Positions 1-63,418 of a stretch of 64,000 bases of DNA are shown here, piece by piece. Each line of letters starts with the position of its first letter. Positions within the stretch are counted from its first letter, which is position 1. A program made the translations under genes and the position numbers. Origin of the DNA: Geosiphon pyriformis uo1. Lineage: Eukaryota; Fungi; Glomeromycota. Under the pieces are notes generated by a model that was not told where the DNA came from, did no database searches, and saw nothing but the letters and a program-made list of their open reading frames with translations. The stretch lies in NCBI GenBank assembly GCA_016748015.1, contig JAAOMT010000470.1, positions 175,788 to 239,787 of the forward strand. Direction: 5' to 3'.

Positions 1-1128
1 ACAACTTATCCACACAGGCCCGAGCCATATACCAAATACACACAACATTTCAGGATAAACCAGAAATATTGCTCAACAAAGCAATAGATATGGTTACCAG
101 TAATCAATTGGGAAAGATCACTAATGCTCAATTTGAAAAATTACAGACCCAAATAACACAAGTAATTCTCGAAAATAAAATCTAAGAAATACTTCAAGAG
201 GGGGAATTAAATGAGTTGGATTTCAATAGAGCTCAATATTAAAAGGAGGGAATAATGTTACTCATAGAAATATAGGAAATATATTAGCATAATTATTAGC
301 CAATCAGAAGTAGGCATAGTAAATGTGAAATTCCAGGATTCCTCTCAGAAATTTCAGGATTCCAAGAATTTCAGAATTCCCTAACAAAGAATTGCAGGAT
401 TCCAGAATTCCAGGATTTCTTTTATAGAAATTGCAAGATTTCATGAATTCCAGGATTCCTGTCGTGAAGAATTAAGGAATTAAGGAATCTCAATTATGTA
501 TATATAGCAGTAGTATTAGAAACAGAAAAGACAGAATCAATATAACAGAACTCTTAGTCTAAAAACACAATCATCAAATAAATAATTATTCTATATCACA
601 ACCCACTCTCCACTATCAACACTTCATGTTAATAGTAATTGATACTTAATCATGCTAGAACAATAGCTCTTGATCATGGCTATTGACAGGATATTAACAT
701 ACCAAATTGTCTTGATTTATTGTCTCTATTTCTCTTTATTTTCTTTTCTTTATTTTATTTTCTTTCTTTTTTTGATTTTGTTGTTGTATACTAATTGATT
801 AAAAAATTAAGCACTGAGTTATTGGCATCAAAAATAGTCTGATAAAAGACCCAGAAATAAGGGTAGAATTTTATATATTATTGGATAGCTTACCAGAAGA
901 GCACGACTGCCAGACTAAATTCAGCCACCATGCTGAGAAAGAAATTGGGAAAACTCTTGAGAAAAATACATCTACTATTGACACTATTGAATCTTTGTTT
1001 GTTATACAAAGAACTCCATTAAAACCTTCAGATACAACACTTGCAGAACATTATCAATGGAAATAGCTTTGAGCACCAAGTTATGGGTTTGTTATTTAAT
1101 TCAACAGCAAAAATAATCATCTGTAACA
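1..1128 (+). mobile_element. Element A: 3' end of a family-1 Ty3/Gypsy LTR retrotransposon, inserted into the RT of element B; the rest lies left of the window
   Basis: ORF3 C-terminus (NQLGKITNAQFEKLQTQI...DFNRAQY*) at 1-241, PPT AAAAGGAGGGAATAA at 241-255, LTR 256-1128, right flank GTGG, then B RT resumes. Confidence 0.9.
256..1128 (+). repeat. 3' LTR of element A
   Basis: Begins TGTTAC and ends GTAACA. Reverse-complement homologue of the LTRs at 36607-37456 and 53767-54616. GGATTCC/GGAATT array at about 327-490 followed by TATATATAG near 499. Confidence 0.92.
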
Positions 1129-1132
1129 GTGG

Positions 1133-6637: not shown

Positions 6638-6701
6638 TGTTTTGGATGATTGTTGTTGATATTGGTTCTTTGTTAAATTATATCTCACAGGAAGCACCAA
6701 A

Positions 6702-9204: not shown

Positions 9205-9870
9205 TTAATATTGAGCTTCATCAAAATCTCCCAAATTTCCTAACTCTAATTCTTTGTCTTTGAGTATTTCTTGAACTTTTTTTTCGAGAATTACTTGAAT
9301 TATTTTGTTTTGTAATTTTTTAAATTGGGTGTTGGTTATTTTTTCCATTTGGTTAACTGTAATAAAGTCCATTTCTGGATTAAGTAAAATTTCCAGTTTG
9401 TCTTAGAATCCAGCATGCAATCTATAGATGGTTCTTGCTTGTGTTGTTAGATTGTTTTTTTCCATAAATTGTTTTAATTGTTGCAGTATTGTTGTGTTGA
9501 ATAATTGTTTTGTTTTATCTGTATATAAGTTCTGAATATTCAAGTGTTATCCCAAGTGGAAATAACAAAAGTTTCTTGGAAATTCGTGTATTCACTATTT
9601 CCATGTTTCTTTGATCAACTCTTAATATGTGGTAATACTTGTTGGTTCTTCTATTGCTAATTTTATTTTCAGAACCCTTTTGTTGATAGTGTTTTCTGTT
9701 TTTCTTTGACTTTTGTATTTGGGTATCTTTCTGGTATCTTGGTATTGAATGGTTTGTTGGTTGATAGTAATTTCTATATTCTGTTTTTGAATCAGTTGGA
9801 AGATTTGTTGTATTAGTAAGTGCATGTTGTTAGTGATTTCCATTTTTCTAAAGTCTTCTATTGCATCTAC
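9205..9870 (-). pseudogene. C ORF3 (unknown accessory protein)
   Basis: MEITNNMHLLIQQIFQLIQKQNIEITINQQTIQY... homologous to the ORF3 of A, D, E and F; ends FDEAQY*. Confidence 0.75.
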
Positions 9871-9903
9871 TATGTTTTTATATTCTCTTTTTATTGTTCA
9901 ATT

Positions 9904-16148: not shown

Positions 16149-16194
16149 TTTGGTGCTCTCTCACGAAAATAACACAGTAACAACAACTTCAAAA

Positions 16195-21751: not shown

Positions 21752-21799
21752 AAAACACAAATCAACACTCAACATAACCAACCTAACAACCAACAAACA

Positions 21800-23185
21800 A
21801 TGAATTCAAAAGACTACAACAATCTCAAACAATATTTGAAGACATTAACAATCCCAACAGATTGGTCTTCAGATGAAAACCATCAATTACAACAACAAAC
21901 CAAACAATATTTCCTACACAACAACATTATTTATCATTAAAATTTCAAAAACCCAGACAAACCACTCAGATTAATACAAGAACATGAAAAAGAGACTATA
22001 TTATACAACATGCACTCAGATCTTTCATCAGTACACTTTGGAAAAGACAGCACTATTCAAAGAACACTAGAATACTATTTTTGACCCTAAATAAGAAAAA
22101 ACATACATTAATATGTTAAATGTTGTGATAGTTATCAAAGAAAAGAAGGAATACGTCCTACTGAACCTTTAAATCCAATCAAAGTTGGACAATCTTTTGA
22201 CCGAGTTGGTATCGATTTAGTCAGACCACTACTTATTATTACGCAAGGAAACCGATACATAACAGTAGCAATAGATTATCTTACCAAATGGCTTGAAGCC
22301 AGAGCTATTCAATGAGCAGATGCAAAATCAGTAGCAAATTTTATTTACAAAGACATTATTTGTAAACATAGATGCCCAATTGAACTTTTATCCGATCAGG
22401 GGACACATTTTGTGAACAACCTAATACAAGAAATTTGTAAATGATTTAATGTCAAAAGACTTTTATCTTCGCCCTATCATTCACAGACAAATGAATTAGT
22501 AGAATGTTTTAACAGAACATTGTGTGAATCACTAGCCAAAGTTTCAACAGATTTTGAGCAGGAATGAGATATCTTTATTCCATCAGTGTTACTAGTATAT
22601 AGAACACTAAAACAAGATACAACAAAACACATACCATTTGACCTTACTTATGAAAGAACAGCAAAACTACCAATTGAATTCATAGTAAAAACATACCCAG
22701 TACAACCAATTACAGAAGAAAACTTACAAGAAACACTTCAGCGAAGAGCTTATACTCTTCTCAGTACTTTAGAAGGAAAAAGACAAATAGCAGCCACTTA
22801 CATTGAAAATTCACAAACCCAACAAAAAAAAAGACATGACAACAAACTGCCATCAGTTACAAACGAATTTAAAGTTAGAAATAAAGTTTTTTTACACTGA
22901 ACTAAGGCTGAAAAACAATGGAATAGAAAATTTGAACATAAATAGGATGGACCATTCTTTGTTTATGAAATCTTAGAAAATGGATCATACAAGTTAAGAC
23001 TTGATGGGAAAATACTAGCAAAAGTTGCACATGGAGATCGATTGAAACATTATCACTCCAGAACACATCCTAAACCATTAATTCCACAAATTGGTACACA
23101 TTCTCCTTTAATTAACCCCAAAGATATTCCCCAAAATTTGGAACCAATAGTTGTTATTGAACAACATCCCAACTTGAACACTTAA
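21800..23185 (+). pseudogene. F integrase, separate 462-codon frame
   Basis: ATG at 21800 after a 48-nt A/C spacer; MHSD..HF, VGIDLV, LLSDQGTHF, GPF module; TAA at 23183-23185 in the same frame. Confidence 0.9.
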
Positions 23186-23302
23186 TTACTATAGAGTCTC
23201 CTATAAAAATTCAAAAACAATCCTACAAAAATAACATAAAAATTTACATATCCAAAAATAATTTTATTTAGGAAAATTTTTAGCTTTGTAAAAATTATTA
23301 TA

Positions 23303-24009
23303 ATGACTATTTCACAAAACATTTAACAATTATTTCAAAAACTAATGTTAGCTTTAAAAACAATACCTGAATTATCTATTACTATTACAGGAAAACATAT
23401 TAATTATACTCAAACAGAAACAGCCACAATCTTATCCCCAAAATCACAAAATTATCACCCTTATAAAAAAACATTAGAAGTTATTCTGGAATTCACCTAC
23501 CAGAACTTTTGAAGCTTGTTTTAAAAGAAAATTTGTCATTCCCACCTATTGACATTCCACCAAATGCCACAATTCAACAAAAACTTCAACAGTGTTTTAA
23601 TGAAGAAAACAGTAAATACTCTCCAATTTATAGATATTTTCACATTGGAAAAACACTGCATGAACAAAAACTGGAACTTACAACAGCCAATCTTACAAAA
23701 GAAGCCATTTAGAAACAACTCTACAATGAATTTAAGACTATGACTGGACCAACAAACAGTTGCTACAAACTTAGAGCAGCTCTTAAATTTTATGACCTAT
23801 TTCACACCTGTGAAAATGTCCTACAAAACCCAATTTTACAACCACTGAAGATCCAATACATTGGAAAACTCACAAAACTGAAATTTCAACAATTTTCAGA
23901 CCAAATTTTTTCAGTAATTTTGGATTATTATCTGGAATGTACAGACAGTACTTGGACTTCGACAGAGCTCAGTCTTGAGGAGAAGATTATGTTACCAACC
24001 AAAACTTGA
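23303..24009 (+). pseudogene. F ORF3 (unknown accessory protein, runs into the 3' LTR)
   Basis: MTISQNI.QLFQKL...ITITGKHINY...YRYFHIGKTL...AALKFYDLF...YIGKLTKLKFQQFSDQI, with one frameshift near 23509. Confidence 0.72.
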
Positions 24010-24955
24010 GATATTAATTAACATAATATTACTCTTATAATTTCTACTATTAAATTAGCATATATTATTGTTCAAATTATCACTTATTATTTAATCAAAT
24101 TATCGAATATTACCAATCAATTAATAACCTGATTTGTATTATAGAAATTAGGATGATCAAATTACACAATACTTCGAACCATTTAATATTCAAGAGTTTG
24201 CTGAAATTTGTAGAAATTCGCTAAAATAATTAATAGTTTACCAAAATATTTAATAGTTTGCAGAAATAACTTGTAAATTTGCCGAAAGGTATCTTTAGTT
24301 CATCAAAACCATAGTAAAGAAAATAGTTCAAGTTTATAGACTAGTACTACAACAAGTTGTATAAAAGAAGAGCTTCTCTCTTTGAGAAAATGTATCTCTT
24401 ATTTTTAGATATCTTACTTGAGACTTATTAATTAGAATTGTTTTCACAAAAATGAAATAAAAATCAAATAATTTAAAAAGTCAACTTCCTTGAAAATTCC
24501 CAAAACCCAACTAATATTTTGAAATTGATTAGCTACCAATTTCAATAAATTGTTAGTGACTCCAGGCCTGGATAGAAAATGTTTCCCTTGACAGAATTCT
24601 ATTTTTTTTACATTTCTTTTATTTTTCTTTTATTTTCTTATTATAATCATTTGGATAGCCTACAGACAAAATTCCTGTAGAAGAGTTAACTTTCACAGCA
24701 AAGTAACTACACATCTTTAGTGAGCTTCCAGATGAGCAATTTCTGAAAAAGAGTTGACATTTACTACAACATAACTACACAAGTAACTGGCACAGAATTG
24801 GCTATTCCACTTATAAGCCCAGCAGTTCAAATTATAGGAGATAATTTGAAGATAAATTCAGTTATTGGAGGTTCAACCACATCCAGAAAACGTGAATTTA
24901 CAGCAAACAGGCATTAACAACCATTAAAAAAAGAGACCAAAAACCTCCAGTAACA
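23990..24955 (+). repeat. 3' LTR of F
   Basis: Direct repeat of 15170-16148. Confidence 0.95.
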
Positions 24956-28957: not shown

Positions 28958-28970
28958 TTATCTCCTCCTT

Positions 28971-29620
28971 TTAATATTGAGTTCTGTCAAAATCTTCACT
29001 TTGAATTAAGTCTAATACTTTTTTTTTAATATTGTTTGTTTAACTTTGTTTCTTATATTTTTGATTTACATGTTGTTTATTTTTTCCCATTGGTTAATAG
29101 TAATTGTTTCTATGTTAGAATGTAACAATATTTCTGGGTAATTTTGAAATATTGTGTGTAGTCAATAGATTGTTCTAATGTGCAGTAATAGATTTCTTTT
29201 CTTCTTGATAATATTTTCAATATTCTGTATTGTTTCTTAATTAAATATTCTTTTGGCTTTATCAAAATATAATTTCTGAATGTTTAACTTTTGTCCCAAC
29301 TGATAGTAGTAATATGGTATTGGAAATTGTTCTGTCCATTATTTTTAATTATCTTTTGAAAGTTCTTTTGTTGAAACCATGATGGGTATTTTTCTAAAAA
29401 TGTTTTTTACTTTCTCTACTATTTTGTTTAACCAGTTTTTTAATTGTTTTTGTGGTTACTAATATGGTGTACTTTTTTTTTGTTTAGTGTCTTGATAACA
29501 GATTGTTTGGTAATTGATGACAATTTCTATGTTTAATTGTTGCTGACTTAAGGCCTGAAACAATTGTTGAACTAAGGTGTAAATATGATATGGTATTTCT
29601 ATTTTTTTTGTTGCTTTTGT
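28971..29620 (-). pseudogene. D ORF3 (divergent allele)
   Basis: HIYTLVQQLFQAL...WTEQFPIPYYYYQLGQKLNIQKLY...IRTIY.LHTIFQNYPEILL. Confidence 0.7.
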
Positions 29621-29656
29621 CACATATTCTGTGTCTTTATATACTCTTTTGGTTGT

Positions 29657-36606: not shown

Positions 36607-37456
36607 TGTTACAGTTGATTAATTGAGGTCTCAAATCCAATAACAAACTTGTAACTTGGTGCTCAAAAAGCTATTTCCATTAATGATATTCTGAAAGTAT
36701 TGTATCTAAAGATTTTGATGGAGTCTTTTGTATAATGAACAGAGATTCAATAGTTGTTTTATCCATAGCTTCCCAGACTCGCAAGTCTGTCAATTCTTTT
36801 CTCAGCTTGGTGGCTGGCAATCCTCTGGTAAGTAATCTGTATTTTCTGTACATGTCCTACCCACTCGCAGGAGTCTTTTACCAGGCAATCCTTGATATCA
36901 GTAATCAGCACTTTTAATCAATTGGTTAGTGCACAATAACAAAATCACAGAAAAATAAAAAAAATAAAGAAATCTAAAGAAATAAGCCAAGGCAATTTAC
37001 AGATTAGTATCCCGTCAATAGCTGTGATCAAGAGCTATTGTTCCAGTATGGTTAAGTATCAATTACTATCAACATAAAGTGTTAATAGTGGGGAGTGGAT
37101 TGAGATATGAAATAATTATTTATTTGATGATTGTGTTTCTAGGCTAAGGATTCAGTAGTATCAATTCTGTCTTTTCTGTTTCTAACACTACTGCTATATA
37201 TACATATTTGAGATTCCTCAATTCCTCAATTCCTTGTGACAGAAATCTTGGAATTCCTGGAATCCTGCGATTTCTGATGAAAAAAATCCTGGAATTCTGG
37301 AATCCTGCGATTTCTTGTTGAGGAATCCTGAAATTTCTGGAATCCTGCAATTTCTCTAAAAGGAATCCTGGAATTCCACATTTACTATGTCTACCTCTGA
37401 TTGGCTAATATCTACTGACTAATAATACTATATTTTCCTATATTCTATGAGTAACA
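36607..37456 (-). repeat. 3' LTR of E
   Basis: 850-bp direct repeat of 53767-54616; 40-bp-period array 37241-37378. Confidence 0.95.
37241..37378 (-). promoter_or_regulatory. U3 enhancer-like array (40-bp period, GGAATCCTGGAATTC(C)TGGAATCCTGCRATTT core) upstream of the LTR TATA box
   Basis: Units start at 37241, 37281, 37321 and 37361; TATATA at about 37195-37202; the same array occurs in the A, B and C LTRs. Confidence 0.65.
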
Positions 37457-37470
37457 TTATTCCTTTCTTT

Positions 37471-38121
37471 TTAATATTGAGCTCCGTCAAAATCTAATTC
37501 CTTTAATTCTCCCTCTTGAATTATTTCTTGAACTTCTTTTTCGAGTATTACTTGTGTTATTTGACTTTCTAATTCTTCAAATTGGGTGTTGGTCATTTTT
37601 CCCAATTGATTATTTGTAACTGTATCCATTGCTGTGTTGAGTAAAATTTCTGGTTAGTCTTAAAATCTCATATATAGCCGATAAATGCCTTAAGCTTGTG
37701 TGGTTAGATTGTTCTTTCCCACAAATTGTTCCAGTTGTCTCAGTATTGTTGTGTTAAATAACCATTTTGTTTTGTTGGTGTACAAATTCTGGATATTTAT
37801 GTATTGTCACAAATGGAAATGACAATAGTTTTTCGGAAATTGTTGTGTCCACCAAGTCCAATTTTCTCTAGTAAGTTCTTGGTGTAGTCCGACTATTTGT
37901 TGTTCTTTTATGGCCAATTTTATCTTGGTTATGATCTTGTCAACAACATTTTCAAGTCTTTTCTGTACTTTGTGTTGTGGTATCTTTGCCATATTTTTGT
38001 AATGAATGGTTTGTTGATTGATTGTAATTTCTATTTCCTGGTGTTAGATTAATTGAAAAATTTGTTGGACTAGTGAATGGATATTGTCCATAATTTCTAT
38101 TTTTCTGATCTTTTCTGTCAT
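37471..38121 (-). pseudogene. E ORF3 (about 215 aa, unknown function)
   Basis: Single frame with point stops: IHSLVQQIFQLI...NYCHFHL.QYINIQNLY...TQA.GIYRLY...NQLGKMTNTQFEELESQI...FDGAQY*. Confidence 0.78.
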
Positions 38122-38154
38122 GTCAACTATGTTTCTTATATATTCTTTTGTCAA

Positions 38155-39537
38155 TCAATTGGACGTGTTGTTGTTGATGATAATGATTGGTTCCAGATCT
38201 CATGGAATCTCATCTGGTTGGACTAGTATTCTCTGTACTCCCAATTGTAGAATATTATTGGTAGATGCTGATGCTATCTGGTGATATGGTTTCAGTCAAT
38301 CACTATGTGCTGCTTTGGCTAAGATTCTGTTGTCCAGTCTTAATTTGTAAGCTCTATTTTTTAAAATTTCTTCTATGTAAAATGGTTTGTTCTATTTGGG
38401 ATTAAATTTTCCACTCTATTGTTTTTCTGCTTTGGTATGATGTAGTAATACTTTGTCTCCAATTTTAAATTCAACTGGTTTGTCTGGTAGTTGACTATCA
38501 TGTCTTTTTTTCTGTTTTTCTTGTGACTTTTGAATATTATTAGCTGCTCTTCTTCATTTGTTTTCCAATGTTTCCATTAAGTCATATGTTCTTTTCAGCA
38601 ATGTTTCTTGAAAATTCTCTTCTGTTATTGGTTCAGCTAAATATGTATTAATTTCTCTCTTTACTGATAATGTTGCTGTTCTCCCATACACTAATTTAAA
38701 TGGTGTTGCTTGTGTAGTATCTTGTTTCATTGTCCAATAAGCAAATAGTACTGATGGTATGAACAAATCCCAATCATTCTGGTTTTCTTGGCTGAGCTTA
38801 GCTATTGCTTTACACAATGTTCTGTTAAATCTTTTGACCAATCCGTTGGTTTGTGGATGGTATGGTGATGATAATGGTTTCTTAATTCCGAATCTTTGGC
38901 TCAATTCTGTTAATGTTCTGTTCACAAAATGAGTTCCTTGGTCTGATAATAATTCTTTTGGACATCCATGTTGACAAATCAAATTCTGATGAACAAATTT
39001 GGCAACGGATTCTGCATTTGCTCTTTGAATTGCTTTTGCCTCTGGCCATTTAGTGAGATAGTCCATAGCTACTACTATGTATCTGTTTCCTCTGCTGGTG
39101 ATTGTTAATGGTCTGACTAAATCAATTCCAATATGGTCGAATGGTTGTCCCACTTTGATTGGTCTTAATGGTTCACTGGGTCTTGTTCCTCCTTTTCACT
39201 GACAAGCATCATAATTTTGAACATATTGAATGATGTCTGGATACATTGATGGCCAATAGTATTTCTTTCTGGTTCTTTCTATGGTTGCTTCTTTGTGAAA
39301 ATGTCCTGCTGTTAGATTTAAGTGCATGTTGAATAATATGGTCTCTTTTTTTAGCTCTGTAATTACTCTGGTTGGTTGATCTGGATCCCTTCTATTTTTT
39401 TGATAAAGTATATTTTGGTGAGTGATAAAATATTTTGATTGTTGTTTGATACTCTTTCGTTCCATTTGAGATAAATTCTTCTTGAACTGTTGAATAGTTA
39501 TATAATGTTGAAGTTGTTGATATTTTTGTATGTTCAT
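38155..39537 (-). pseudogene. E integrase, separate 461-codon frame
   Basis: ORF-track pieces 39196-39537 (MNIQKY...MH...GHF...DACQ) and 38554-39153 (IGIDL, SDQG, HPQTNGL) are in one frame. Confidence 0.93.
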
Positions 39538-39601: not shown

Positions 39602-42600
39602 TTAGATTTGTTTTATTTATGACAAACTGTCAGCATTTCTATTGTTTTTTCCTTTCTTATAATGTATAGTATAAGTATATTGTGAGAGTGCCATTTTCTA
39701 TCTGGATTGGCAGCCATCATTACATTCTTGCTTTTGAAGTGATGTTAATCCTTTATGATCTGTATATATCAAACTTTTGGCTTAAGTATTTGTTCCACTT
39801 CATAACTGCCCAATAGATTGCTAAGTATTCTTGTTCTGGTGTTCCATAGTTTTTTTCGGCTGGTGTTAAATTTTGGCTGGCATATGCTACTGGATGTTCT
39901 CTGCTGTCTGGTCCTCTCTGAGATAGTACTGCTCTCAATGCTTAGCCAGATGCATCAGTGGTAATGATGAATTGTTTGTTGTGATCTGGATAAATCAGTA
40001 CTGGAGCTTGAATGAGCTTTCTTTTCAGAATATCAAAAGCTTCTTGTTGACTTTCTGTCCATTCATATTTTATATTTTTGTTTTGCAGTTGGTTGAGTGG
40101 CTGCGCTATCTTGGAGAAGTTCTTGATAAAACGTCAATAGTAGCTGGCAAATCCCAAGAATGATTTCAGTTCTGTTATATTGGTCAGCACTGGAAAGTTC
40201 TTTACTATCTCTATTTTCTCTGGATCTGTTTTGATGCTGTCTTTGCTGACTATGTGTCCCAAGAATTTTAGTTCTGTCTTGCCAAAGAAGCACTTTGTTG
40301 CATTTAACTTTAGTCTTGCTCTTCTTAGTCTTTCAAACACTTGTTGAAGATAATGAAGATGATTATTAAATGTTTTTGAGAATACATTGGTGTCATCCAA
40401 GTATACAACTATTAATTTCCACAATAAGCCAGTATAAATGATTTCCATTAACCATTGGAAAGTGGCTGGAGCGTTGGTTAAGCCAAATGGCATCACTTCA
40501 AATTCAAAATTCCCTTCTCTAGTAGTGAATGCCATCTTCTCTTTGTCGGCTGAATTCATGGCTACTTGCCAGTAACTACTGTTCAAGTCTAATGTTGAGA
40601 ACCATTTGTTCCTGCCAAAAGTGTCGAATAATTCCTGTATTCGTGGAGTTGGATAACTGTCTCCACGAGTTACACCATTGAGTTTCTTGTAGTCCACACA
40701 AAATTGAATTTTTCTATTTTTTTTATGGACAAGTACCACTGGTGATAACCATGGGCTCATTAATAATTGAATTAGTTTGTTGTCAAGCATTCAGTTTATC
40801 TCTTAACGAATGATCTCGTGGCTGGCTGGTGGCACTCTGTATGCTTTTTGTTTAATTGGTATTGTATTTTCAGTTTTAATCTGATGCTGGATGATGTCAG
40901 TTTAGCCAAACTTGTTTTCACTGGCAAAAATGTCATTGAAATTGTTGAGCAATATCTTGAGCTGCATATGTTGTAGTGGATCTAGATTTCCCATGTTCAT
41001 TTGTTCCAATTGTTTTGGTTAGAACAAATAACATTCGTTTCATCCATAGATTGTTTGTGATGTGATGTTGACATATCTACAAAGTTGTGGAAAGTTTGGA
41101 ATAGGGTTTGGTGGTTGGTCTTCTATTTCTGTGGTTAAATATCCAATGGTGGTTCTTTCTAGTATGTTGATAACATTGTCAGTGTTGTTGTAGATGGGAA
41201 TTTTTATGTGGCTATAGCTTTTGGCTGGTAGGTGGAAATTGATCAGTCTAATCTCTCCTGATTCACAAAGGTTTGCTTCAGCTTCAAAAATCTGTTCTTG
41301 CTCTTTTTTCTTCTTTTCTATTGCTAGCATGTACTAGTTATATGGTGGAATGGAAATAGCTTGACCAGTTGAGATAATTTTTCCTTGGCCAACAATTTCT
41401 TCCTCTGTCATATTAATTAGTACATCTATTCTATCTATTGACCCAAATCCCTGTATCCCTCTTACTGTTATTCCTAATTCTTCCTTATTTTCCATTGGTA
41501 CTAACTAAGCTATCTTAACCAATGGTAAGAATATTGCCTGTGTTATCTTTTCATTTGGCTGTATTATATAGGTCTTTTTTGAGTCATTTTGTAGCATAGC
41601 AATGATATTTCCTACATATCCCACATCAATTATTCCTCCTCTTATATTAATCTCTCTTTTTACTAAACTACTCTGGAATGCTAGTTGAACTATTGTTGTT
41701 GCTGGGATTTCCAGTGCTATTTTCAGGTCAATGCAGGTGCATGAATGTGATTTCAATTTGATGACATCTTTTCCTGGATATCTTAGATCAAACCCTGTAC
41801 CGGTATCATGCACTCGTTCTGGCATGATGTCTTTGCTATTGTCACTGTATTATTTCAACTCCTGTTCTTTAGAGAGATCTGGTAGAGCAATGTATTGTTT
41901 GTAGTTAAGATTGGAGTCTGAATTGTTGATATTTTTGTTGCCATATTGCATGGAACTGGAACTGGTGTTTTCATTGTCATTATTGTTGGAGTTTAAATTG
42001 AGATTGTAAACTAATTTCGATTCCAATGCGCAGCTGTTGGTTGGTTCCTCTTTCTTAGGGATTGTGTAGATCATGTATGGTAGTGGATTGTAGATGAGGT
42101 CACACTTATCACAATATTGAAAGTTACATGAAATTAAACAGTGGTCACATAATCTGGTGTTTATTTCTTCCAAGTATTGCTCCTGTTTCTCTCTTGTGGG
42201 TGCTAACTCCTGGTAATGTTCATGAAATTGCTCTGGATCTAAAAAATTTATGACTGGTTCTGGGTCCCAGTCAAGTTCTATGGGCTCTGGAGGATTGTTC
42301 TTGATCTTTCTGATCTCTTTGGGTGTTGCTCCTTTTATTTTGGTGATTGCCATTTTCCAAATTTTGTTGTCGTCATGTGAACAACTATCTAGTCGTTGCA
42401 TGGCTCTTCTCTAGGCTGCTTCTATTGGGGTTCTTTTCCTTATCCAGTCGCTTATTAGAATTGTGTATTGACATGACATGTCACACGTTCTTCTATGTCT
42501 TGGAATGTTGTTCCATATCCCTTTATCTAACAGGGTCTTCCCACAAGCGAGACAAAGTTGGTTATCCCATTTTTCTTGTCTCTTTAGTCATTCAAAGTGT

Positions 42601-45275
42601 TTAAATATGCATGGATGATAGTAAAACTTTGTTGCGATGTGGTATTCCTTATTGTTGCCACAGCATGCGCCCATTGACGACAGTTTCTTGCTGCAATTGA
42701 CGCATACAAGCTTTGGCTGATGATAATTGGATTGTTGTGGAGTGTGATGGGTGTAAGAATTATAAATAGTAGCAGTTGGTGGCATTTCTTCTTTCTTTTC
42801 TTTTCTTTTTCCCTTATCTTTGTTTCATTCCCAACTTGAGACTTCTTCTTGTTCATTGTCAGTCCAAGTCAGATCATCAGTTTCCCAGATAAATTCATTT
42901 GTTTGCTTTTTTTTCTTGTTGTCATCCCAAGAGAGTATTGGTGGCAGCTCATTGTACTCTTCGTTAGCCCACGACACTTGGTAAGCTTCCCAGGTAGGTT
43001 TTGGTTTCTCTTCCTCAAAGTTAATTAGTGGTGCCATGGTGTTGGTAGTCTTAAAGTGGCCACACATTGCTGGTACATGCATGTGTCACCAGTTCTGGCT
43101 GATTTAAAGCTCTTGTGTGTTCCAGTCCAGAGTGACATTTGTCTTGGACAGCTAGTCATTACCAATTAGAGCTTGGTATTGGATGGCTTCCATAACAAGT
43201 ACTTTAATTGGAACTATAATGCCATTAATTTCAATTGGTAAGTCATTGATTTTACCAATTGGAGTCTTGGTTGCTCTATTAGTCATGATGATTCTGGCAC
43301 TAGCAGCTCAATCAACTCGGTGACCTAATTGATCCATGAGTTGTCATGTGATGATGCTGCCTGCTGAACCACTGTCAAGAATTAGTTTGATGGGATGGCC
43401 ATCAATTTTCACATTAGTGTACATGGCTGTAATTGGCTTTTCTTCTAGTGCAGCTCCACTGAATAATGGCATGGTTAACAGTTTCTTAAGTTCGAATGGA
43501 AAAATGGCGTCTAGAGATTCATCTTCAGTGATTGTGGCAGGTAGAATGTTGCTGGTAGGTGCTTGTTTGAGTTCTCAGTTGTTGGGTGTGGCATTTTCTG
43601 AAGTAACCAAGAGACTTAAATAGTTTTGGGAATTCAGGTTTTGGATGGCGCCTGTACTCGAATTCCGAGAACGGGGTCCTGAGCTTTGATAAGAGGAGCT
43701 GGAGATTGGTTGATGAACAACCATTGCTGATCTCTAATTTTGAGCAATTCTGGATCTCGGGTTTCCTGATTTCATTGTAGCTGAGTTTTGGAGCAGTGTT
43801 TGGATTGATGGTTGAGACTAATAAATTATTTGGGGCTGCGGCTGATAAATTATTGAAGGCTGCTGTTGATAAATTGCTGGTGGCTGCGGTTGATAAACTG
43901 GAGGTTGATATACTGGCAGTTGATAGATTGGTTGCTGCATTATTAGCAGGTAAGTATTTTGATATTGGTTTTGATCTTGATTTAGATAATGATTCAGAGT
44001 TTGGAACTGGCAATCAGGATTTCTGTATTGATTTCCCAATCATTGGTTGCTATAAGTATGGCAATTAACTCGAATATAGCCTTGTTTACTACAGTTATGG
44101 CAAACACGTGTTTCTGGCTGCCATGACTGACTAGGTGCTGCAGATGATAATGGATGTGACTGATTTTGGAAATGATTCATGTTTCCTGAATTATTGCATC
44201 ATTGTAGTGGTTGATATATGATGCGATTGTCAACTAAGTATCCCTTTAATTTCTGATTAATTGACTCACTGAATTGTTTCAATTTGGAATCCAATTCAGA
44301 TGATCTATTCATGACTAGGTTTACTGCTTGGGCGTGGTTGGCTTCTAACTCAGCTGCTTCAAAATCTCTGGCATGTGTAACTGTGGTAGGAAGGTCAACT
44401 GAATGCATTGGGCATATTTGTTGGAGGAGGTTACTGCACAAACCTCTAATAAATTAGTTCAAAATCTGTGGTGCTATAAAATAGTCAGCTTAAATTGCTT
44501 GGATTTGGTGCAGGTTTCTATGAAAGCATCCCAAGTAAGTGGTGACTGCTTCAGTCTCTCCTTGTTTGATGGTGATGAAAAGGTTAGCTAACTTGTTAAT
44601 GCTATTATTGTTACTGAAATATCTTAAGAATTCTGTCTTGAAGTCGTTGAAGGTTTGAGATTTGACAGCTAGACTTTGATACTATGCATCTGTGGTGTCT
44701 CTTAGAAAGTATGGGATGGCTTGAAGTGCTCGGGCATCATTTTATCTATTCACAGTAATGGCTTTCTCTACGTCATTCAGTCATACTTGCGCATCATCCT
44801 CTTCACTGATAAAGTTGTCAAGTTTTACAATTGGTATGTAGGCCATTGGGTCTAAGTTAGGTTGTTGTGATGGCTGTTGAAGTGGTTGTTGTTATACTGG
44901 TTGTTGGAGTGGTAGTTGAAATGACTGCTGTATGGGTTTGGCTATTGGATTAATTGGTGGTTGATTGATAACAATTACCGGAGGTAAGTTTTGCTGATTA
45001 ATTAATTCGGGGTTTGGATTGTTCTGTCTTTGATGTTTTGAAGTTTTGATTTCTGAATTTTCTAGATTTAAATTTTGCTGAGCTTGAAGGTTTGGGGTTT
45101 CAACTTTCAGGTTTTTGATAATTGGTTGTTGATAAGTAAATTCTTGATCTTCACTTTTTTCTTCTTCTTTCTCTGATAATTCTCACAGAGTAGTGATTCC
45201 GAAATCTGGTTGTGCTAGTGGTAATCGAATTCCTGATGGCGTTGGGGATTGTGATTTAAATCCTTCAAAATACAT
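39602..45275 (-). pseudogene. E gag-pol, main part (N-terminal piece at 53155-53704)
   Basis: RT 40134-40790 (MPFGLTNAPATFQ, YLDD), dUTPase 41440-41825, LILDSGSAGS near 43370, CHNC.K.G.I..NC knuckle. Confidence 0.93.
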
Positions 45276-46244
45276 TGTTACCAAATGAAATTAGAGATAT
45301 TATTTAGCATAAAATTATCTTATAATTCCTATCATTAATTAGCATATATTATCATTTTAAATGATCACTTATTACATTAGCAAAAAAATGTCCAAAATTA
45401 TTATTTAATTAATAACTCAAATTGTACACAACACAAATGTAACCTAATTGCGATGATCAATCATGCAATACCCTGAACTATGTAACATTCAGAAGTTTGC
45501 CAAAATTTGTAGAAATTTGCTGAAATAATTGATAGTTTACCGAAATATCTAATAGTTTGCCAAAATAACTTGTAGTTCGCCGAAATGTATCTTTAGTTCA
45601 GCAAAATTGTAGAAAATAGCAAAGTTCAAGTTCATAGAATAGTGTTACAACAAGTTGTATAAAAGAAGAGCTTCTCTCTTTGAGAAAATGTATCTTACTT
45701 TAGATTTATCACTTAGAACCATTCCTACATACACAAAAAGAAATAAATATAAAACCAAACTCTTTAAATTATTGCACTTGGAAAATCCTTAAAACCCAAC
45801 TAACATTTTGAAATTGATTAGCTACCAATTTCAGTAAACTGTTAGTGACTCCAGGCCTGGATAGAAAACGTTTCCCTTGATAAAATTTCATTTCTTTTAC
45901 ATTTTTTTTATTTTCTTTTATTTTCTTATCATAATCATTAGAGTAACCTACAGACAAGATTCCTGTAGAAGAGTTGACTTTCACAGCAAAGTAACTACAC
46001 ATTTTTTGTGAACTTCCAGACGAGCAATTTCTGGGAAAGAGTTGACGTTTACTACAATGTAACTACATAAAGCAACTGGCACGGAATTGGCCATTCCACT
46101 TATAAGCCCAGCAGTTCAAATTATAGGAGATAATTTGAAGATAAATTCAGTTATTGGAGGTTCAACCACATCCAGAAAACGTGAATTTACAGCAAATAAG
46201 TATCAACAACATTACAGAAAAGAGACCAAAAACCTCCAGTAATA
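45276..46244 (+). repeat. 5' LTR of G
   Basis: TGTTAC...GTAATA; homologous to the F LTRs. Confidence 0.95.
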
Positions 46245-46292
46245 TTTGGTGCTCTCCCACGGAAATAACACAGCAAAAAAAACAACTTCAAA

Positions 46293-49200
46293 GTGGTGAC
46301 CACACCAGACACAACAACTCTAAAGTATTACCAATCAATTTACACCCACTGCAAGCAAAGATTCAACATTCCAGACGGAATTGAAGTTGTCAAGAAATCA
46401 GTATACCAATACATTAAAAACCGCATCAACAATTATCTTTTTGGAAATTACAATATCTCAGAAGTTAGAAGCAACTTTTACAATAATTTAGCACACTATT
46501 TACAGTTGGAAACTGAAGACCTTAATAGTGAAACACTTGCCACTTACTTTCACAAACTTAATTTTAACATTATCAAATACTGTGAAGAAACATATCCAGT
46601 GCAGTCTCAATACACTATTGATTTTGAATCAGAAACAGAAACAAGCAACAAAGGCAAAAACAAACTAAAGCAATATTCAAGAACCACCCCAAATACTCCA
46701 ACACTACCAAAAACAACTGCCAAACATTTACAAACACCTGAACAAAGAACCAGCTCAAAACTTCCACTTACTATCACACCTTTTCTAGCTTTACTTGCAC
46801 AAACACAAACACCTAATTCACCCTTGAATCAATTTGCAAGACCAGAAGATTTTACATCACTCAGAAGTCCCACCAGACAACAAGAACCCCTTCAAACTAG
46901 TTCCAATCTCCTTGATTTTCTAGCTGAAAATCAAAGTAAACACTCTGTGACAGCAGCAAATGAAGAAAACAACTCTGAAATAACTGAAGAAGAATCAATA
47001 GACAGTGAAAACGAAGAAGACGAAATGACAACATACATCACAAAAATCCCTGAATTCAATGGAGAAGATATTGAGACCAGTCTTCAAGAATGGCTCGACC
47101 AAGTTACTAAAGCTGAAGATGCAAATGGATGGAATGCTGCCAGAATGTTAAGAACAATTCCCTACTTTCTCAAAGAAACAGCAGAAGAATGGTTTGAAAA
47201 CCTTGCCGCCCCATTCAATGATTGGAATGCTTTCAAAGCAGCCTTCCTTGAACAGTTCACCGACAATAATACCTCCATCACTCTTCGCAATTGTTTTCGA
47301 AATATCAAACAAGAACCCTCCAAATCCATTATGACTTATATTGGGAAATTCAACAAACTTCTCAGACGGATTCGCCAACTCGAGACAAATGATTATTATT
47401 CTGATGCTCAAATCTTGGATCAATTTATCACTGGTCTAAAAGATAAACTAATTAAAAAGGTTCACCCACACACGCCAGAAGATTTAAACTCTGCCATACA
47501 GCATGCGAAAAGATACAAAATGGCCATGGAAGAAGCCAATCGTACAAAACTTGTAAATTTGGCAATTGGAGAACCCAGCTCAGCAGCTGAGAAAAAAATT
47601 GACCAACTCACAAAGAAGGTCAAAAACTATTTTTCCAACCAACAACAACAACAACCCCAAAGATATCAACCACCCCAAAAACGAAATCAAAATAACTTTG
47701 CACTACTTTCCAATAACCAGCCCCAGAATTGTCATTACTGTGGAATCTCCGGCCACTGGAAAAGAGATTGCAGAAAGCTACAACGAGACCAACAAAATAG
47801 GGGTAATCAACGTTACTCTCCACCACAGCAATCTTATTATTAACTATTACCACCAGCTTACTATCTATCAAGACCCCAATACCAAAATAACTATTATCAG
47901 CCTGCCCCACAACCAATCCAACAGCAATACCAATAACCACTCACACAACATTATCAAGTACCTGCTCGAAGACTGATTACACAAAATCAATTCACACCAC
48001 AAAACTGATACCAAGTAAACAACAGTAGAATCAATTCAAACAACCAATTGGTTCCCCAAAATACCACTCAACCAAGATCCAACCATTACCACACTCAACT
48101 TAGTTATTTAACAATGCCAGAAGAACAGGATTTTCACCATACTACATCCTCAGAAGGTAGAGCTGCAGCACAACAACAACGAAATCCTTTTCATAACCAC
48201 ACCACTATTCCACCAGCCTGAATTGCTAAAAATGCCAATCTCTCTGATATCTTTCCTTTTGAATTTGAAGCAAATGAATCACCATTCTTGCTTAGCAATG
48301 CAGCGGCTAATGAGCAAAAAGCCATCACTGCAATGTATGCAGAAGCTGAAGTAGAAGGAAAGCCAATTCGCTTGATTCTAGACAGTAGATTTGCTGGAAG
48401 CATTATTACCTACTAGTTAATGCAACAGTTGAAAAGAAATGTTGACCGACCAGCTCAAACAGTAATCGTCATTGCCGATGGCATGAAAAAGACACCAGTA
48501 GGAGAAATTGACAATTTTCCATTCACTCTTGATGGAATCACCATTTCAGTCAAAGTTCTTGTAATGGACGCATTCCAGTACCAAGCTCTCGTCAGAAATG
48601 ATTGGCTTCAAAAAGCCAATGCTAATCTGAATTGGGAAACACAAGAGTTAATAATCTCCTACCAAGGACAACACGCCCGAGTACCTGCCATTTGTAGTAC
48701 ATTCAACAAACGCTCTAAAAAAGCCCCAGCTTTTGAATTTGAACCAGAAGAAGAAAAACCAATAATCGAAACATTTATGGCTCTTGGATCAATGTCCAAC
48801 TGGGCCGATGAAACAGAACAAGAACATTTTATCCCACACACTAAACCTGAAACCTCTGAATGGAATATATCTTACTCAAAACTCGAACCAAGAAAACAAT
48901 GCCCCTATATTCCCCTTAAATGTAAGGACTGCCACAAGAAACTATTGTCAATGGGAGCCTGCATTTCACCTGAAGAAGAATATGAGAATCATACTTGTTA
49001 TTACTGCAAGGCTTGCCACAGAGAGCAATGGGGCCATCTAATAAAAAGGAGCAAAAAATGGAACAATACCCCTTGTTTGACTTGTGGAGATATGCTACCA
49101 GAAGAATGCAATTGGATTGATGTAGCAATGAGAGGAGGCGTCTGCAATCAGACCTGCCAATATGCTTTATCAATTTCAGAAAAAGTAAAAAGAAGAATAC

Positions 49201-51914
49201 TCTTTAATGCAGCATACAATAGTGCTCTCAACAAACTTTATCACTACCCTCATAATGCCGAGATGATTTTCGACTTAGCAATGGCATTAATTAATGGAGC
49301 TACCAAAAAAGATGTTTGTCAAATGAAGGAAGCAGAATACATTGAATACACTATGGAATTAGCTGGATTCAATTATGAAGATGAAGTAGAAGTCTACCAC
49401 CAAATTGCAAATCACACCTACCTGACCCAAGAAGCTCAAATTCAATGATTAGAGCAAATGAACATTAGGCTATGTGAAGAATGCATTATGCCTTGCGATG
49501 AACAGTGGTGTTTTGAATGCTATGCTTTTAGTATCCCCTTGCCCAACGAGAATGATGAGAATGAAATTGAATTTGGAGAACCTAAAGAAACAGAAGAAAT
49601 TGAAACAACACCCATCTACCTTATTGAAAATCAGTCTGCTTTACAACTTAAATACTTCAACAACAACGGACAAGGAATAAAACCCAAAAAGACACACAAA
49701 ATTGATGCTGGATATGACCTAAAATATCCAGGCAAAGATACTCTTGTTCTCAAACCCAAATCTCTCACAAAAATCAACCTCAAAATTGCACTCGAAATCC
49801 CATCAGGAGCAATGGTTCAAATCACCTCCCGGTTCTCTCTGGCAAGCAAAGGAATCAATGTCAGAGGAGGAATTATTGATGCTGGATATACTGGAGACAT
49901 AACAGTGATGCTTCAAAATGAAACTGACAAACCATTTAAGATCGAACATGCTGAAAAAATTGCCCAAGCTATTTACCTACCCTTAATCAACATTTCGGGT
50001 TTGCAACTAGTCAATCAAAGAGAACAATTAAGAAAAAGCGATAAAGGAACCCAAGGTTTTGGTTTAACTGGACGATTCACAGTTCCAGTTAATATAGCTC
50101 TTAACACACAAAACAAATCCCACCAGATTCTCAGACTTCCACAACCAATTACCATCTCACCTTTTGGAGAACATCTGGAAATCTACATTTGCACAAAGCC
50201 AACAACCACACAACAAATTTTTGAGTCCAATGAACAAGTCTGCTTGGAACATAATATTTTGATCCCAAACATTTATATTCTAGAAGAAACAAAGAAAGTC
50301 CGAGTTACTTTTTACAACCCCAATAATTACCCCATAATTTTATTAAATAATTTAGAAATTGGAGTTATTTACAGTAATATATTTCAATAAGAATTACCCC
50401 AAACAGTCCCTGATTTCCCTGAAATTATTGGACATTCACTACTGAAAATCAACCCAAACCCTAGCTCTGAAAACTACTATGTTGTCATGGAAAAACTATC
50501 TTGAATCAACATGGGACAACTTGAACTATAACAACAAACCCAGCTCAAAGAACTAATTGCAGAATTTGCTGATATCTTCGCCGAAAACAACAATAACTTA
50601 GGAAGAACTGATTTGGTTCAACACCAAATCTATACAGAAGATGCCAAACCCAGATGACAACAAGTCTACCGAGTTGCTCCAGAAAGTCACCAATTTATCT
50701 GAGAAGAAGTACAACGGATGCTTAACAATAGGCTTATTCAACCATCAATAAGCCCATGGGCCTCACCTGTGGTTCTAGTTAAAAAGAAAAATGGAAAGAT
50801 ATGATTTTGTGTTGATTACTGACAACTCAACAGTGTCACCATTGAGGATGCCTACCCTCTTCCCCAAATTGATAATATGTTGGATGCCCTTGGAAAGTCC
50901 AAATACTTTTCGACATTAGATTTAGAGAGTGAATACTGGCAAGTTGCTATGGATCCCAAAGACCGCCCCAAAACAGCATTCACCACTCAAGGAGGAAATT
51001 ATGAATTCAATGTAATGCTTTTCAGATTATGCAATGCACCAGCAACATTCCAAAGACTCATGGATGTTGTTTACAAAGGCCTCCTTTGGAAATCAGTAGT
51101 AGTTTATCTTGATGACATTGATGTTTATTCACCATCTTTTGAGCTACATTTAAGTCACCTGCGAGAAGTTTTTCAATAATTACGGAAAGCAGGATTGAAA
51201 CTAAACATTGAAAAATGCTACTTCGGAAAAACAAGTTTAGCTTTTCTTGGTCATATTGTTAGCAAAGATAGAATTAAACCAAACCCTGGAAAAATCAGTA
51301 CTATCAAGAACTTTAAGACTTCACAAAATACCACAGAATTAAAAGGATTTATTGGATTAGCATCTTATTACCGAAAATTCATCAAAGGATTCTCAGAAAT
51401 TGCAAAACCCTTCAACCAGCTCACTACTAAAAATGTCGAATACAAATAGACAGAAGAACACCAAAATGCCTTCGAGATACTTAAAGAAAAACTCACAACA
51501 GCTCCAATCCTCACCTACCCAGATTTTAGCAACCGATTCTGGTTAGCAACTGACGCCTCTTATACTGCCTTTGGTGCCATCCTATTACAGTTAGATGACA
51601 ATGGAAATGAGCAAGTAATTGCTTATGCTAGTAGAACATTAAAGCCAGCCGAAAAGAACTACCCCACAACAGAATTAGAAACCGCAGCAGTAATCTGGGC
51701 CCTACATCACTTCAACCTTTACTTCAGACTCAAAGAATTCAATATTATCACTGATAATATTGGACTTAAATGGCTTCAAAACAAAAACACCCAGCTGAAC
51801 ACAAAACAAATCCAATGGACAAGATTTTTAGCTAATTACCGATACATCATACACCACAAACCAGGAAAACTCCACACCAATGTTGATTGTCTCTCAAGAA
51901 TGAGGCAAGATTAG
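46293..51914 (+). pseudogene. G gag-pol: one 1874-codon frame (Gag, CCHC, PR, Cys-rich, dUTPase, RT, RNase H) broken only by nonsense mutations
   Basis: ORF-track pieces starting at 46293, 48420, 49458, 50877 and 51195 are all in frame; CHYCGISGHWKRDC; DAGYDL/GIIDAGYTG/KIAQ/GTQGFG; YLDD; ends CLSRMRQD*. Confidence 0.95.
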
Positions 51915-52173
51915 AAAACAAAACCAACACCCATCTGAATTAACAGCATCAAAACAACAAACAATGAACTCTGAAAACTACAACAATCTCAAACAATATT
52001 TTCTACACAACAACATTATCTATTATTAAAATTTCAAAAACCCAACCAAACCACTCAGATTAATACAAGAACCAGAAAAAGAGACCAAATTTTTTCAATA
52101 ATTTTGGATTATTATCTGGAAATAACAGACAGTACTTGGACTTCGATGGAGCTCAGTCTTGAGGAGGAGGTTA

Positions 52174-53154
52174 TGTTACCAGACGAAATTAGAGATATTA
52201 TTTAGCATGAAATTATCTTATAATTCCTATCATTAATTAGCATATATTATCATTTCAAATGATCACTTATTACATTAGCAAAAAAATATCCGAAATTATC
52301 ATTTAATTAATAACTCAAATTGTAAACAACACAAATGTAACCTAATTGCGATGATCAATCATGCAATACCCCGAACTATGTAACATTCAGAAGTTCGCTG
52401 AAATTTGTAGAAATTTGCCGAAATAATTAATAGTTCACTGAAATATTTAATAGTTTGCCGAAATAATTTGTAGTTTGCCGAAATGTATCTTTAGTTCAGC
52501 AAAATTGTAGAAAATAGCAAAGTTCAAGTTCATAGAATAGTGTTACAACAAATTGTATAAAAGAAAAGCTTCTCTCTTCAAGAAAATGTATCTTACTTTA
52601 GATTTATCACTTAGAACCATTCCTACACACACAAAAAGAAATAAATATTAAATAATTCGAAAAACCAAACTCTTTAAATTATTGCACTTGGAAAATCCTC
52701 AAAACCCAACTAATGTTTTGAAATTGATTAGCTACCAATTTCAGTAAACTGTTAGTGACTCCAGGCCTGGATAGAAAATGTTTTCCTTGATAAAATTTCA
52801 TTTCTTTTACATTTTTTCTATTTTCTTTTATTTTCTTATCATAATCATTAGGGTAACCTACAGACAAAATTCCTGTAGAAGAGTTGACTTTCACAGCAAA
52901 GTAACTACACATTTTTTGTGAGCTTCCAGACAAGCAATTCCTGAGAAAGAGTTGACATTTACTACAACATAACTACATAAAGCAACTGGCACGGAATTGG
53001 CCATTCCACTTATAAGCCCAGCAGTTCAAATTATAGGAGATAATTTGAAGATAAATTCAGTTATTGGAGGTTCAACCACATCCAGAAAACGTGAATTCAC
53101 AGCAAATAAGTATTAACAACATTACAGAAAAGAGACCAAAAACCTCTGGTAACA
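52174..53154 (+). repeat. 3' LTR of G
   Basis: Direct repeat of 45276-46244. Confidence 0.95.
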
Positions 53155-53766: not shown

Positions 53767-54616
53767 TGTTACAGTTGATTAATTGGGGTCTTGAATCCAA
53801 TAACAAACTCATAACTTGGTGCTCAAAAAGCTATTTCCATTGATGATATTCTGAAAGTGTTGTATCTAAAGGTTTTGATGGAGTCTTTTGTATAATAGAC
53901 AAAGATTCAATAGTTGTTTTATCCATAGCTTCCCAGACTTGCAAGTCTGTCAATTCTTTTCTCAGCTTGGTGGCTGGCAATTTTCTGGTAAGTAATCCAT
54001 ATTTTTTGTATGTGTCCTATCCACTCACAGGAGTCTTTTACCAAGCAATCCTTGACGTCAGTAATCAGCACTTTTAATTAATTGGTTAGTGCACAATAAC
54101 AAAATCACAGAAAAATAAAGAAAATAAAGAAATCTAAAGAAATAAGCCAAGGCAATTTGCAGATTAGTATTCCATCAATAGCCGTAATCAAAAGCTATTA
54201 TTCCAGTGTGGTTAAGTATCAATTACTATCAACATAAAGTGTTGATAGTGAGAAGTGGATTGAGATATGAAATAATTATTTATTTGATGATTGTGTTTCT
54301 AGGCTAAGGATTCGGTGGTATTAATTCTGTCTTTTCTGTTTCTAACACTACTGTTATATATACATATTTGAAATTCCTCAATTCTTCAATTCCTTGTAAC
54401 AGGAATCCTGGAATTCCTGGAATCTTACGATTTCTGATGAGAGGAATCCTGGAATTCTGGAATCCTGCGATTTTTTGTCAGAGAATTCTGAAATTCCTGG
54501 AATCCTGCAATTTCTCTAAGAGGAATTCTGGAATTCCACATTTACTATGTCTACCTCTGATTGGCTAATATCTACTGACTAATAATACTATATTTTTCTA
54601 TATTCTATGAGTAATA
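53767..54616 (-). repeat. 5' LTR of E
   Basis: Direct repeat of 36607-37456 with adjacent PBS. Confidence 0.95.
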
Positions 54617-57429: not shown

Positions 57430-57442
57430 TTATCCCCTCCTT

Positions 57443-57595
57443 TCAAAATTGAGCTTCATCGAAATTGAAGTTAATTTTTTCATTAAATTCTAAGTTACTA
57501 TAGTGGTTTAATACTGTATTATTAATTTGTTGTTGTAATTCTTGAAATTGCGAATTGGTAAGTCGTCCAATACTGTTGGTTGTTATTATGTTCAT
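57443..57595 (-). pseudogene. H deletion scar: 50-aa mini-ORF joining the integrase-position ATG to the ORF3 C-terminus
   Basis: MNIITTNSIGRLTNSQFQELQQQI...NFDEAQF*; the tail aligns with the ORF3 ends of A, C and E. Confidence 0.75.
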
Positions 57596-57624
57596 GGTTG
57601 TTGTGGCAGGTGGGTTGGTAATTT

Positions 57625-63336: not shown

Positions 63337-63418
63337 TTTTGTCTCTTCTTTTTTAGCAATGAATTATTGCTAATTATTATTTCTTTTTTGATTTTCTTTC
63401 CTTATAGGGTTCACCAAA

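Follow-up and report, generated by a model that had tools for sequence, protein, structure and literature searches.

A conserved third gene behind pol in dUTPase-bearing Ty3/Gypsy elements of Geosiphon pyriformis, with a possible link to a prokaryotic domain

The elements and their ORF3 copies

The window, as we call the whole stretch of 64,000 nucleotides of Geosiphon pyriformis DNA that was analysed, consists of decayed LTR retrotransposons that are nested in one another. They were mapped by tblastn and blastn, and are referred to by the letters A to H used in that mapping. Element G (45276-53152) is nested inside F, between the two LTRs of F, and element D (15170-24955) is inserted in element C. 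The map and Pfam give gag, protease, cysteine-rich insert, dUTPase, RT, RNase H and integrase in the order of Ty3/Gypsy, and the elements have TGTTA...TAACA LTR ends, 4-bp duplications, a polypurine tract (PPT) and TGGTG after the 5' LTR. A dUTPase between protease and RT is already known from fungal elements. The cysteine-rich insert, of about 200 aa between protease and dUTPase, is found in every element that has that region, and no Pfam family was above cut-off for it.

Between integrase and PPT there is a further frame, ORF3. In element F it has 216 codons from ATG to TAA (37471-38121, minus strand), and translation gives five internal stops, at codons 26, 105, 144, 154 and 156; this copy is dead. 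It starts 33 nt after the pol stop and ends right at the PPT, which is followed by the 3' LTR (TGTTA at 37456). Relatives in the databases start three codons further upstream, with MVD..., and 38121 is the first ATG remaining in F.

The first-pass annotation had proposed a frame of about 210-235 aa at this position in A, C, D, E and F and C-terminal remnants of it in G and H, and homologous frames were indeed mapped in all of these, so seven of the eight elements retain ORF3, whole or in part. The position stands, with these qualifications: the D and G frames run through the PPT, A has 79 codons inside the window, and D is frameshifted in its N-terminal third and E near its tail, in addition to the five stops in F. 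Element B (about 1130-7600) has neither integrase nor ORF3 and has lost its 3' region.

Most or all of the integrase has been lost by internal deletion from G, H (56555-64000) and B. G and H retain the ORF3 tail, the DNA motif ahead of the PPT and the PPT itself, and their LTR pairs are 94-96% identical. Decay is almost wholly by transitions (73 of the 76 places listed). The gag frame apparently begins within the 5' LTR and continues across both the end of the LTR and the primer-binding site (…NIWCS…); further upstream, the 5' LTRs contain pyrimidine tracts and AG sites that resemble an intron end.

Table 1. Features of element F, ORF3 copies of the other elements, and recurrent features (positions in the window)
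Feature	Position	Strand	Remarks
ORF3 of element F, decayed, 5 stops	37471..38130	-	relatives' start codon at 38130
ORF3 N-terminal module QQIFQLI...IEITINQQTIHY, predicted helix and beta-hairpin	38005..38100	-	low-confidence model
ORF3 conserved helical core	37520..37880	-	Y.Y..(I/L)G..L; G(K/P)(T/N)N turn; A..RLY..F; (I/L)GK(I/L)T..F...I
Conserved DNA motif TTYRAYRGARCTCARTHTTRA adjoining PPT	37471..37491	-	'FDGAQY*' in F, other frame in D and G
PPT of F	37457..37470	-	
3' LTR of F	36607..37456	-	TGTTA...TAACA; U3 repeats ahead of TATA-like box
5' LTR of F	53767..54616	-	92.6% identical to 3' LTR; 4-bp target duplication ATAC/ACAC
Integrase of F	38155..39501	-	zinc finger, core, SH3-like C-terminal part; in the frame of ORF3; TGA 38157-38155
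Remaining pol of F	39608..43514	-	protease, Cys-rich insert, dUTPase, RT, RNase H
ORF3 of element C	9205..9873	-	5 stops
ORF3 of element E	28967..29623	-	7 stops, 1-nt indel near tail
ORF3 of element A	3..242	+	last 79 codons, cut by window start
ORF3 of element D	about 23303..24009	+	one frameshift (N-terminal third); 3' LTR from 23990
ORF3 of element G, C-terminal remnant	about 52082..52190	+	internal deletion took most of integrase and ORF3
ORF3 of element H, C-terminal remnant	about 57443..57600	-	matches P0189/P0192 family
Cysteine-rich insert	48840-49448, 42782-42177, 60621-60136, 18694-19293, others		
Start of gag frame inside 5' LTR	53900-53700 (F); 46200-46270 (G); 16100-16170 (D)		
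U3 repeats, A/C/E/F LTRs	37230-37380 (F)		GGATTCC/GAAATTTC runs, heat-shock-element-like spacing
U3 repeats, D/G LTRs	near 15370-15500		TTTGCC(G/T)AAA-like
U3 repeats, H LTR	near 57330-57240		AGCAAACACCA
U3 repeats, metagenome element L001			TTTGCCCTAG

Conservation and selection

The F and C copies of ORF3 are 58% identical (E 1.6e-72) and the profiles of the D-type and F-type match with 98.9% probability (P 1.7e-17) over 108 columns, a likeness that exceeds chance. Between ORF3 families, and with the metagenome elements described below, identity is 20-36%. The motifs that had been listed as shared across families are present in the alignments.

Pairwise dN/dS was estimated among the window copies without transition correction and, given here in brackets, with kappa 3. 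For ORF3 it is 0.25 for F-C with a 95% bootstrap range of 0.14-0.39 (0.42, 0.27-0.60), 0.34 for F-E (0.62), 0.30 for C-E (0.59) and 0.14 for F-A (0.23), where some of the bootstrap lower bounds are skewed by saturation. For the integrase core F-C gives 0.22 (0.32) within a range of 0.22-0.45 (0.32-0.68), and RT gives 0.09-0.23 (0.17-0.38). All these values include neutral decay after insertion, and are thus pushed towards 1. With regard to indels, F and C differ in ORF3 by one of 9 nt, and F and E by indels of 3, 3, 9 and 3 nt, after which, at the tail, come one of 1 nt and an end gap. All but the one near the tail of E are multiples of three, as against 3 of 44 in the LTRs.

ORF3 is under purifying selection, with dN/dS of 0.25-0.6, similar to that of integrase. 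A dN/dS near 1 between families had been named beforehand as one of the results that would tell against the first-pass annotation, and the values among window copies are well below it. One could still see in the frame a non-functional 3' sequence that lacks stops by descent only, as every copy in the window is broken and NCBI's gene models for these repeats are in many cases chimeras, but the dN/dS values, the triplet indels, the 20-36% identity across families and metagenome elements and the confident fold make this extremely improbable. ORF3 is a third, element-owned gene of a dUTPase-bearing Ty3/Gypsy clade. It is separate from pol, reads in the sense direction and lies between pol and the 3' LTR, occurs in most copies and shows pol-like conservation, as is characteristic of sense additional ORFs. 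Extra ORFs behind pol are already known as a kind, but this family is previously undescribed: a search of literature drawn mainly from outside the subscription journals gave no published description of it.

There is a separate observation on the end of the integrase gene. The SH3-coding stretch (38556-38287 in F, and its equivalents in C and E) has almost no four-fold synonymous change, with changes among C, E and F at 1 of 45 four-fold sites as against 25 of 96 in the integrase core. The dip has p 0.001-0.03 per pair when all synonymous codons are used, for a stretch that was picked post hoc. It is absent in comparisons with D and with L001, and RNA folding of the stretch is not unusual (z -1.5). 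Recent recombination could account for it, as could a signal specific to the lineage, for instance an internal promoter of ORF3.

Relatives in Geosiphon and in metagenomes

All 55 matches of the first protein search are hypothetical proteins of Geosiphon pyriformis. A search with the D-type gave 208 proteins, 23 of the 120 listed being exactly 239 aa, and a profile run against 1.84 billion representatives had 118 matches. Ten proteins were looked up, of which seven are from Geosiphon, and P0207, P0216 and P0278 are metagenome records; nearly all named relatives are Geosiphon proteins. P0279, near the profile threshold, was rejected as a false positive, being a repeat protein. Intact ORF3 proteins are of 209-239 aa and end at or just inside the LTR. 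Repair of a consensus, which had been suggested earlier, is unnecessary because such intact natural copies exist.

Hundreds of the Geosiphon 'hypothetical protein' models (G9A89_*, among P0001-P0333) are ORF3 copies, which the gene predictor has often spliced to gag, integrase, LTR or other repeats. Of the 56 core sequences, 13 were gene models with gaps or of chimeric make-up, and these were left out of the profile comparisons.

Six metagenome loci (L001 to L006) were obtained by means of an integrase pattern. In L001 pol is nearly intact, and there is an intact ORF3 of 230 aa (P0216) with its own ATG, which is in another frame than pol and begins 313 nt behind the pol stop. L005 has a probable distant ORF3 (10.6 bits, with none of 500 shuffles as good), and the ORF behind integrase in L004 is a weak candidate only, as 6 of 500 shuffles score as well. 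In the case of L002, a related element with its integrase end at about 1150-1200, there is a purine tract directly behind integrase and no ORF3, and the gene is therefore not universal in the wider group. L003 ends too early to show the region. L006 carries at 1500-2161 an env-like frame of an unrelated insect-type Gypsy element. The ORF at L005:581-1174, of 197 aa behind integrase in a more distant element, ends through the same pre-PPT motif as the window elements.

The integrase and ORF3 trees both place D outside the group of C, E and F; the order inside that group differs between the two, and the deeper forks are without resolution. No ORF3 relatives were detected in IMG/VR, in a GTDB pattern search, among phages (best E 5), or in a profile search, run without positive control, of 201 sampled genomes from one phylum, and these blanks are not proof of absence.

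Properties of the predicted protein

The highest 19-residue Kyte-Doolittle mean, a measure of hydropathy only, is 0.27-1.29 in all seven intact proteins, each of which has one or two cysteines; three of the seven are acidic overall (pI 5.1-5.9). The full-length AF2 model is poor (pLDDT 48), and suggests an N-terminal helix and beta-hairpin. In contrast the core model (P0216 residues 78-215, 138 residues, built with 63 sequences) is confident, with pLDDT 88.7 and pTM 0.79. It has seven helices in an all-helical globule with no beta strands. Helices 50-65 and 70-84 (numbering of the model) flank the conserved G-K-T-N turn, and the two helices around the G(K/P)(T/N)N turn are predicted to resemble a helix-turn-helix. 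A chromodomain was considered and rejected, as the core model lacks beta strands and a stop separates ORF3 from integrase; Pfam searches gave no chromodomain match. No PD-(D/E)XK or other nuclease family was found in ORF3 in the family searches.

The evidence supports a soluble, mostly helical protein that is not env. The first-pass annotation, which saw no transmembrane stretch, took the protein for soluble and helical and stated that it was not env, is supported; a confident match to env or to some other described ORF, which would have told against it, was not obtained. ORF3 does have the position and orientation of env (PMC7264820), so an env-like or cell-to-cell movement protein has to be considered. 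With such low maximum hydropathy and so few cysteines in the seven intact proteins, an all-helical globule for a core, and no env match among the viral structures or families searched, we regard it as very improbable.

What the core resembles

No curated family claims ORF3, in keeping with the earlier failure to recognise one. Sequence searches of Pfam, PHROGs, NCBIfam and PDB gave nothing above cut-off; the commonest PHROG match is phrog_23683, of unknown function, for 13 of 42 members (best E 4e-4). Foldseek, which had been proposed as a check together with a predicted structure, returned an empty list for the full-length model and nothing at E<=0.001 in PDB or BFVD for the core, and a later structure comparison had a best Z of 4.5. 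That check thus gave a confident core and no significant structural relative. An ESM Atlas search with full-length P0002 also gave no usable match.

The lead that recurs is DUF1016_N (PF17761). The best Pfam match is copy D (E 0.007, 16.9 bits as against a gathering cut-off of 32.8), and E<=0.1 is reached by 2 of 42 members in one set and 0 of 23 in another. In ESM Atlas DUF1016_N scores 0.89, and a DUF1016/ParB-HTH cluster 0.87, where anything below 0.9 is a lead only, with unnamed bacterial and phage clusters ranking above them at 0.94 and 0.91. Using a DUF1016_N profile of 41 members, hhalign gave 56.6% (P 1.1e-4, 61 columns) for the D-type; with all ORF3 families the figure is 20.6% (P 0.0011). 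The F-type profile, the type to which the copy at 37471-38121 belongs, has no match (P 0.18). The alignment registers YW.IG on YF.IG, and MR.FY..F on A.RLY..F. None of 150 block shuffles or 60 column shuffles reaches the real scores and reversed profiles score lower, but the best block shuffle comes close (27.8 as against 30.4). Three metagenome proteins alone, and 24 Geosiphon D proteins alone, give the same YW.IG and F..F anchors. The split into D and F was made after the data had been seen, with three families tried, and a P of 1e-4 is not significant over a library of the size of Pfam.

The related families fare less well. Against DUF3102 (PF11300, 25 members) hhalign gives P 0.19 for ORF3 and 0.035 for the D-type, and against the ParB HTH 0.21 and 0.035, while DUF1016_N itself matches DUF3102 at P 3e-4 and ParB at 0.004. 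The ORF of L005 is weakly like DUF1016_N (P 0.005). In BFVD a phage DUF3102 protein is third in the Foldseek ranking (E 1.0, TM 0.33). The longest span among the best 50 structural matches is that of Spo0J/ParB (Z 5.2, rmsd 4.1, 91 residues), and the KorB DNA-binding domain gives Z 4.2 with rmsd 2.4 over 54 residues. Both are within noise, as are all the structure Z-scores, and unrelated helical proteins rank higher.

DUF1016_N probably carries a helix-turn-helix. The passages on it in PMC1189080 describe no more than a predicted helical domain, with no confident structural matches, ahead of a PD-(D/E)XK nuclease, and do not establish that it binds DNA. The likeness to DUF1016_N of YhcG consists of the YW.IG helix (Y(F/Y).IG in ORF3), two more helices, a glycine turn and an F..F-like end. 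The alignment covers 58-61 columns and leaves out the C-terminal half of ORF3; ORF3 also differs in its extra N-terminal helix-hairpin module, its eukaryotic retroelement context and a score far below the Pfam cut-off. YhcG has its PD-(D/E)XK nuclease and ParB its N-domain, whereas ORF3 has neither attached. On balance we slightly favour true homology of the ORF3 core with DUF1016_N. The remark made earlier that one segment loosely recalls helical nucleic-acid-binding domains, then offered as speculation, gains moderate support from DUF1016_N, and is still to be read as a possibility suggested by sequence likeness.

If the likeness is no more than coincidence between amphipathic helices, ORF3 could be a protein-binding suppressor of host silencing, acting on methylation or small RNAs and binding no nucleic acid. 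This would fit the conserved columns of ORF3, which are largely hydrophobic or structural, and the preponderance of transitions in the decay, and in the related Rhizophagus CG methylation of transposable elements and small RNAs have been reported (PMC8647823). It is at odds with the clustering of K143, N145 and R155 (P0216 numbering), conserved residues of exposed type, at the turn and the following helix, and with the recurrence of the DUF1016_N anchors in two separate subsets, and we think it unlikely.

The 3' end and the reading frame

The last codons, (D/N)FD(G/E/R)AQ(Y/S/F)-stop, are in another frame than the body of ORF3 in D, G and L001, and are therefore not a protein motif. The ORF3 frame of D, G and L001 has no stop before the PPT and continues through it into the LTR, and 108 of the 120 D-type proteins listed end with such read-through of the PPT. 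The underlying 21-nt DNA motif occurs seven times in the window, each time ahead of a PPT, and is kept in all seven elements that have a 3' end, whichever frame reads it. The shuffle control for this motif is partly circular because the pattern was drawn from these same sites. A loosened form of it is also present in L001 and L005 and is absent from the other 121 loci, which are mostly bacterial. The motif is best read as a cis-acting signal which the tail of the gene overlaps.

A role in RNA export, packaging or translation, with ORF3 binding the RNA of the element like Rev or CERV, would give this motif, present in L001 and L005 as well as in the window, a possible function as binding site. 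The pyrimidine tracts and AG sites of the 5' LTRs resemble splice acceptors, so unspliced RNA may need export, and an accessory protein of Cer1 plays such a role in C. elegans (PMC10309623). Yet the motif may merely serve plus-strand priming, the family searches found no RNA-binding family or arginine-rich motif, and the sole recurring lead points to a domain of prokaryotes that is fused with a predicted nuclease for DNA; we consider an RNA factor quite unlikely.

The other end of the gene differs between families. In F (38157-38128) ORF3 shares the frame of pol, from which a single conserved TGA and eight further sense codons separate it, and the same holds for C and E; read-through of the pol stop is therefore possible for the F-type. 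In D there is a spacer of 117 nt with further stops between pol and ORF3.

Some chromovirus targeting domains extend into the 3' LTR. ORF3 could similarly be an integration-targeting or integrase-accessory module that stands in for a chromodomain and is produced on its own or, in the F-type, by read-through behind that single TGA. In favour of this, the C-terminal part of the integrases is SH3-like and gave no chromodomain match, and the window elements have inserted into each other. Against it are the spacer of D with its stops, the change of frame after 313 nt in L001, the start methionine kept in every ORF3 family, and the PPT right behind integrase in the related L002, and it seems to us an unlikely explanation.

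Possible function

We return to the reading that we prefer, though tentatively and with the balance a little against it: that ORF3 is a soluble helical DNA-binding accessory regulator, distantly related to DUF1016_N and kept by purifying selection. The protein would be translated, starting at its own ATG, from a subgenomic or spliced RNA, would enter the nucleus and would bind DNA of its own element, either LTR or cDNA. There it could raise or time transcription of the element, or shield it from methylation.

The U3 regions have short repeats ahead of a TATA-like box that are distinct for each LTR family, and these are candidate sites for ORF3; host factors account for them equally well. The heat-shock-element-like pattern is marginally enriched in F-type LTRs (8 matches as against 3.1 expected, reached in 1 of 100 shuffles).

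A more specific proposal, which we find rather doubtful, is that a Glomeromycota Gypsy clade captured a prokaryotic or phage gene with a DUF1016_N-type HTH and made of it a transactivator or anti-silencing factor that recognises its own LTR, and that this possibly lies behind the LTR expansion in Archaeosporales. LTR sequence makes up 41.2% of the G. pyriformis genome (PMC11952901).

With regard to annotation, hundreds of G. pyriformis 'hypothetical proteins' are this transposon gene. Overall the accessory gene family is real, and its link to a prokaryotic domain is of moderate strength and testable. With intact natural ORF3 copies and a confident core model a direct test is feasible, and if both the prokaryotic link and DNA binding are true, a regulator domain of bacterial type would be at work in a fungal retrotransposon, which is unusual.

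Comparison with known systems

LTR retrotransposons are thought to need gag and pol only, and for most extra ORFs the function and origin are given as unknown in the part of PMC7264820 that deals with them. That account covers sense additional ORFs (aORF-3S or ORF3) between pol and 3' LTR of Ty3/Gypsy elements in plants. ORF3 of Geosiphon has in common with them its position, orientation, presence in most copies and pol-like conservation; those described there are env-like with membrane segments, whereas the Geosiphon protein is soluble and of no named family. In fungal Gypsy elements a figure legend of PMC2864245 marks an 'add. ORF of unknown function'.

Bdelloid rotifers have dUTPase-bearing LTR elements with ORF3s that are not env, described in PMC5408684 as GDSL esterase, DEDDy exonuclease, coiled-coil and TM proteins. 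The likeness lies in a dUTPase in pol and a captured non-env ORF3 common to several families. The difference is that the rotifer ORF3s are recognisable enzymes or membrane proteins, and no such domain is present in ORF3 of Geosiphon.

With regard to function, VANC of VANDAL transposons and Tas of foamy viruses are transposon-encoded anti-silencing or transactivator proteins. GENE23 of Grande is also among the element-encoded proteins of this kind (PMC7264820). The likeness of ORF3 to VANC, Tas and GENE23 is a functional analogy only, that of a nuclear factor acting on its own family, which is the role that we infer for ORF3.
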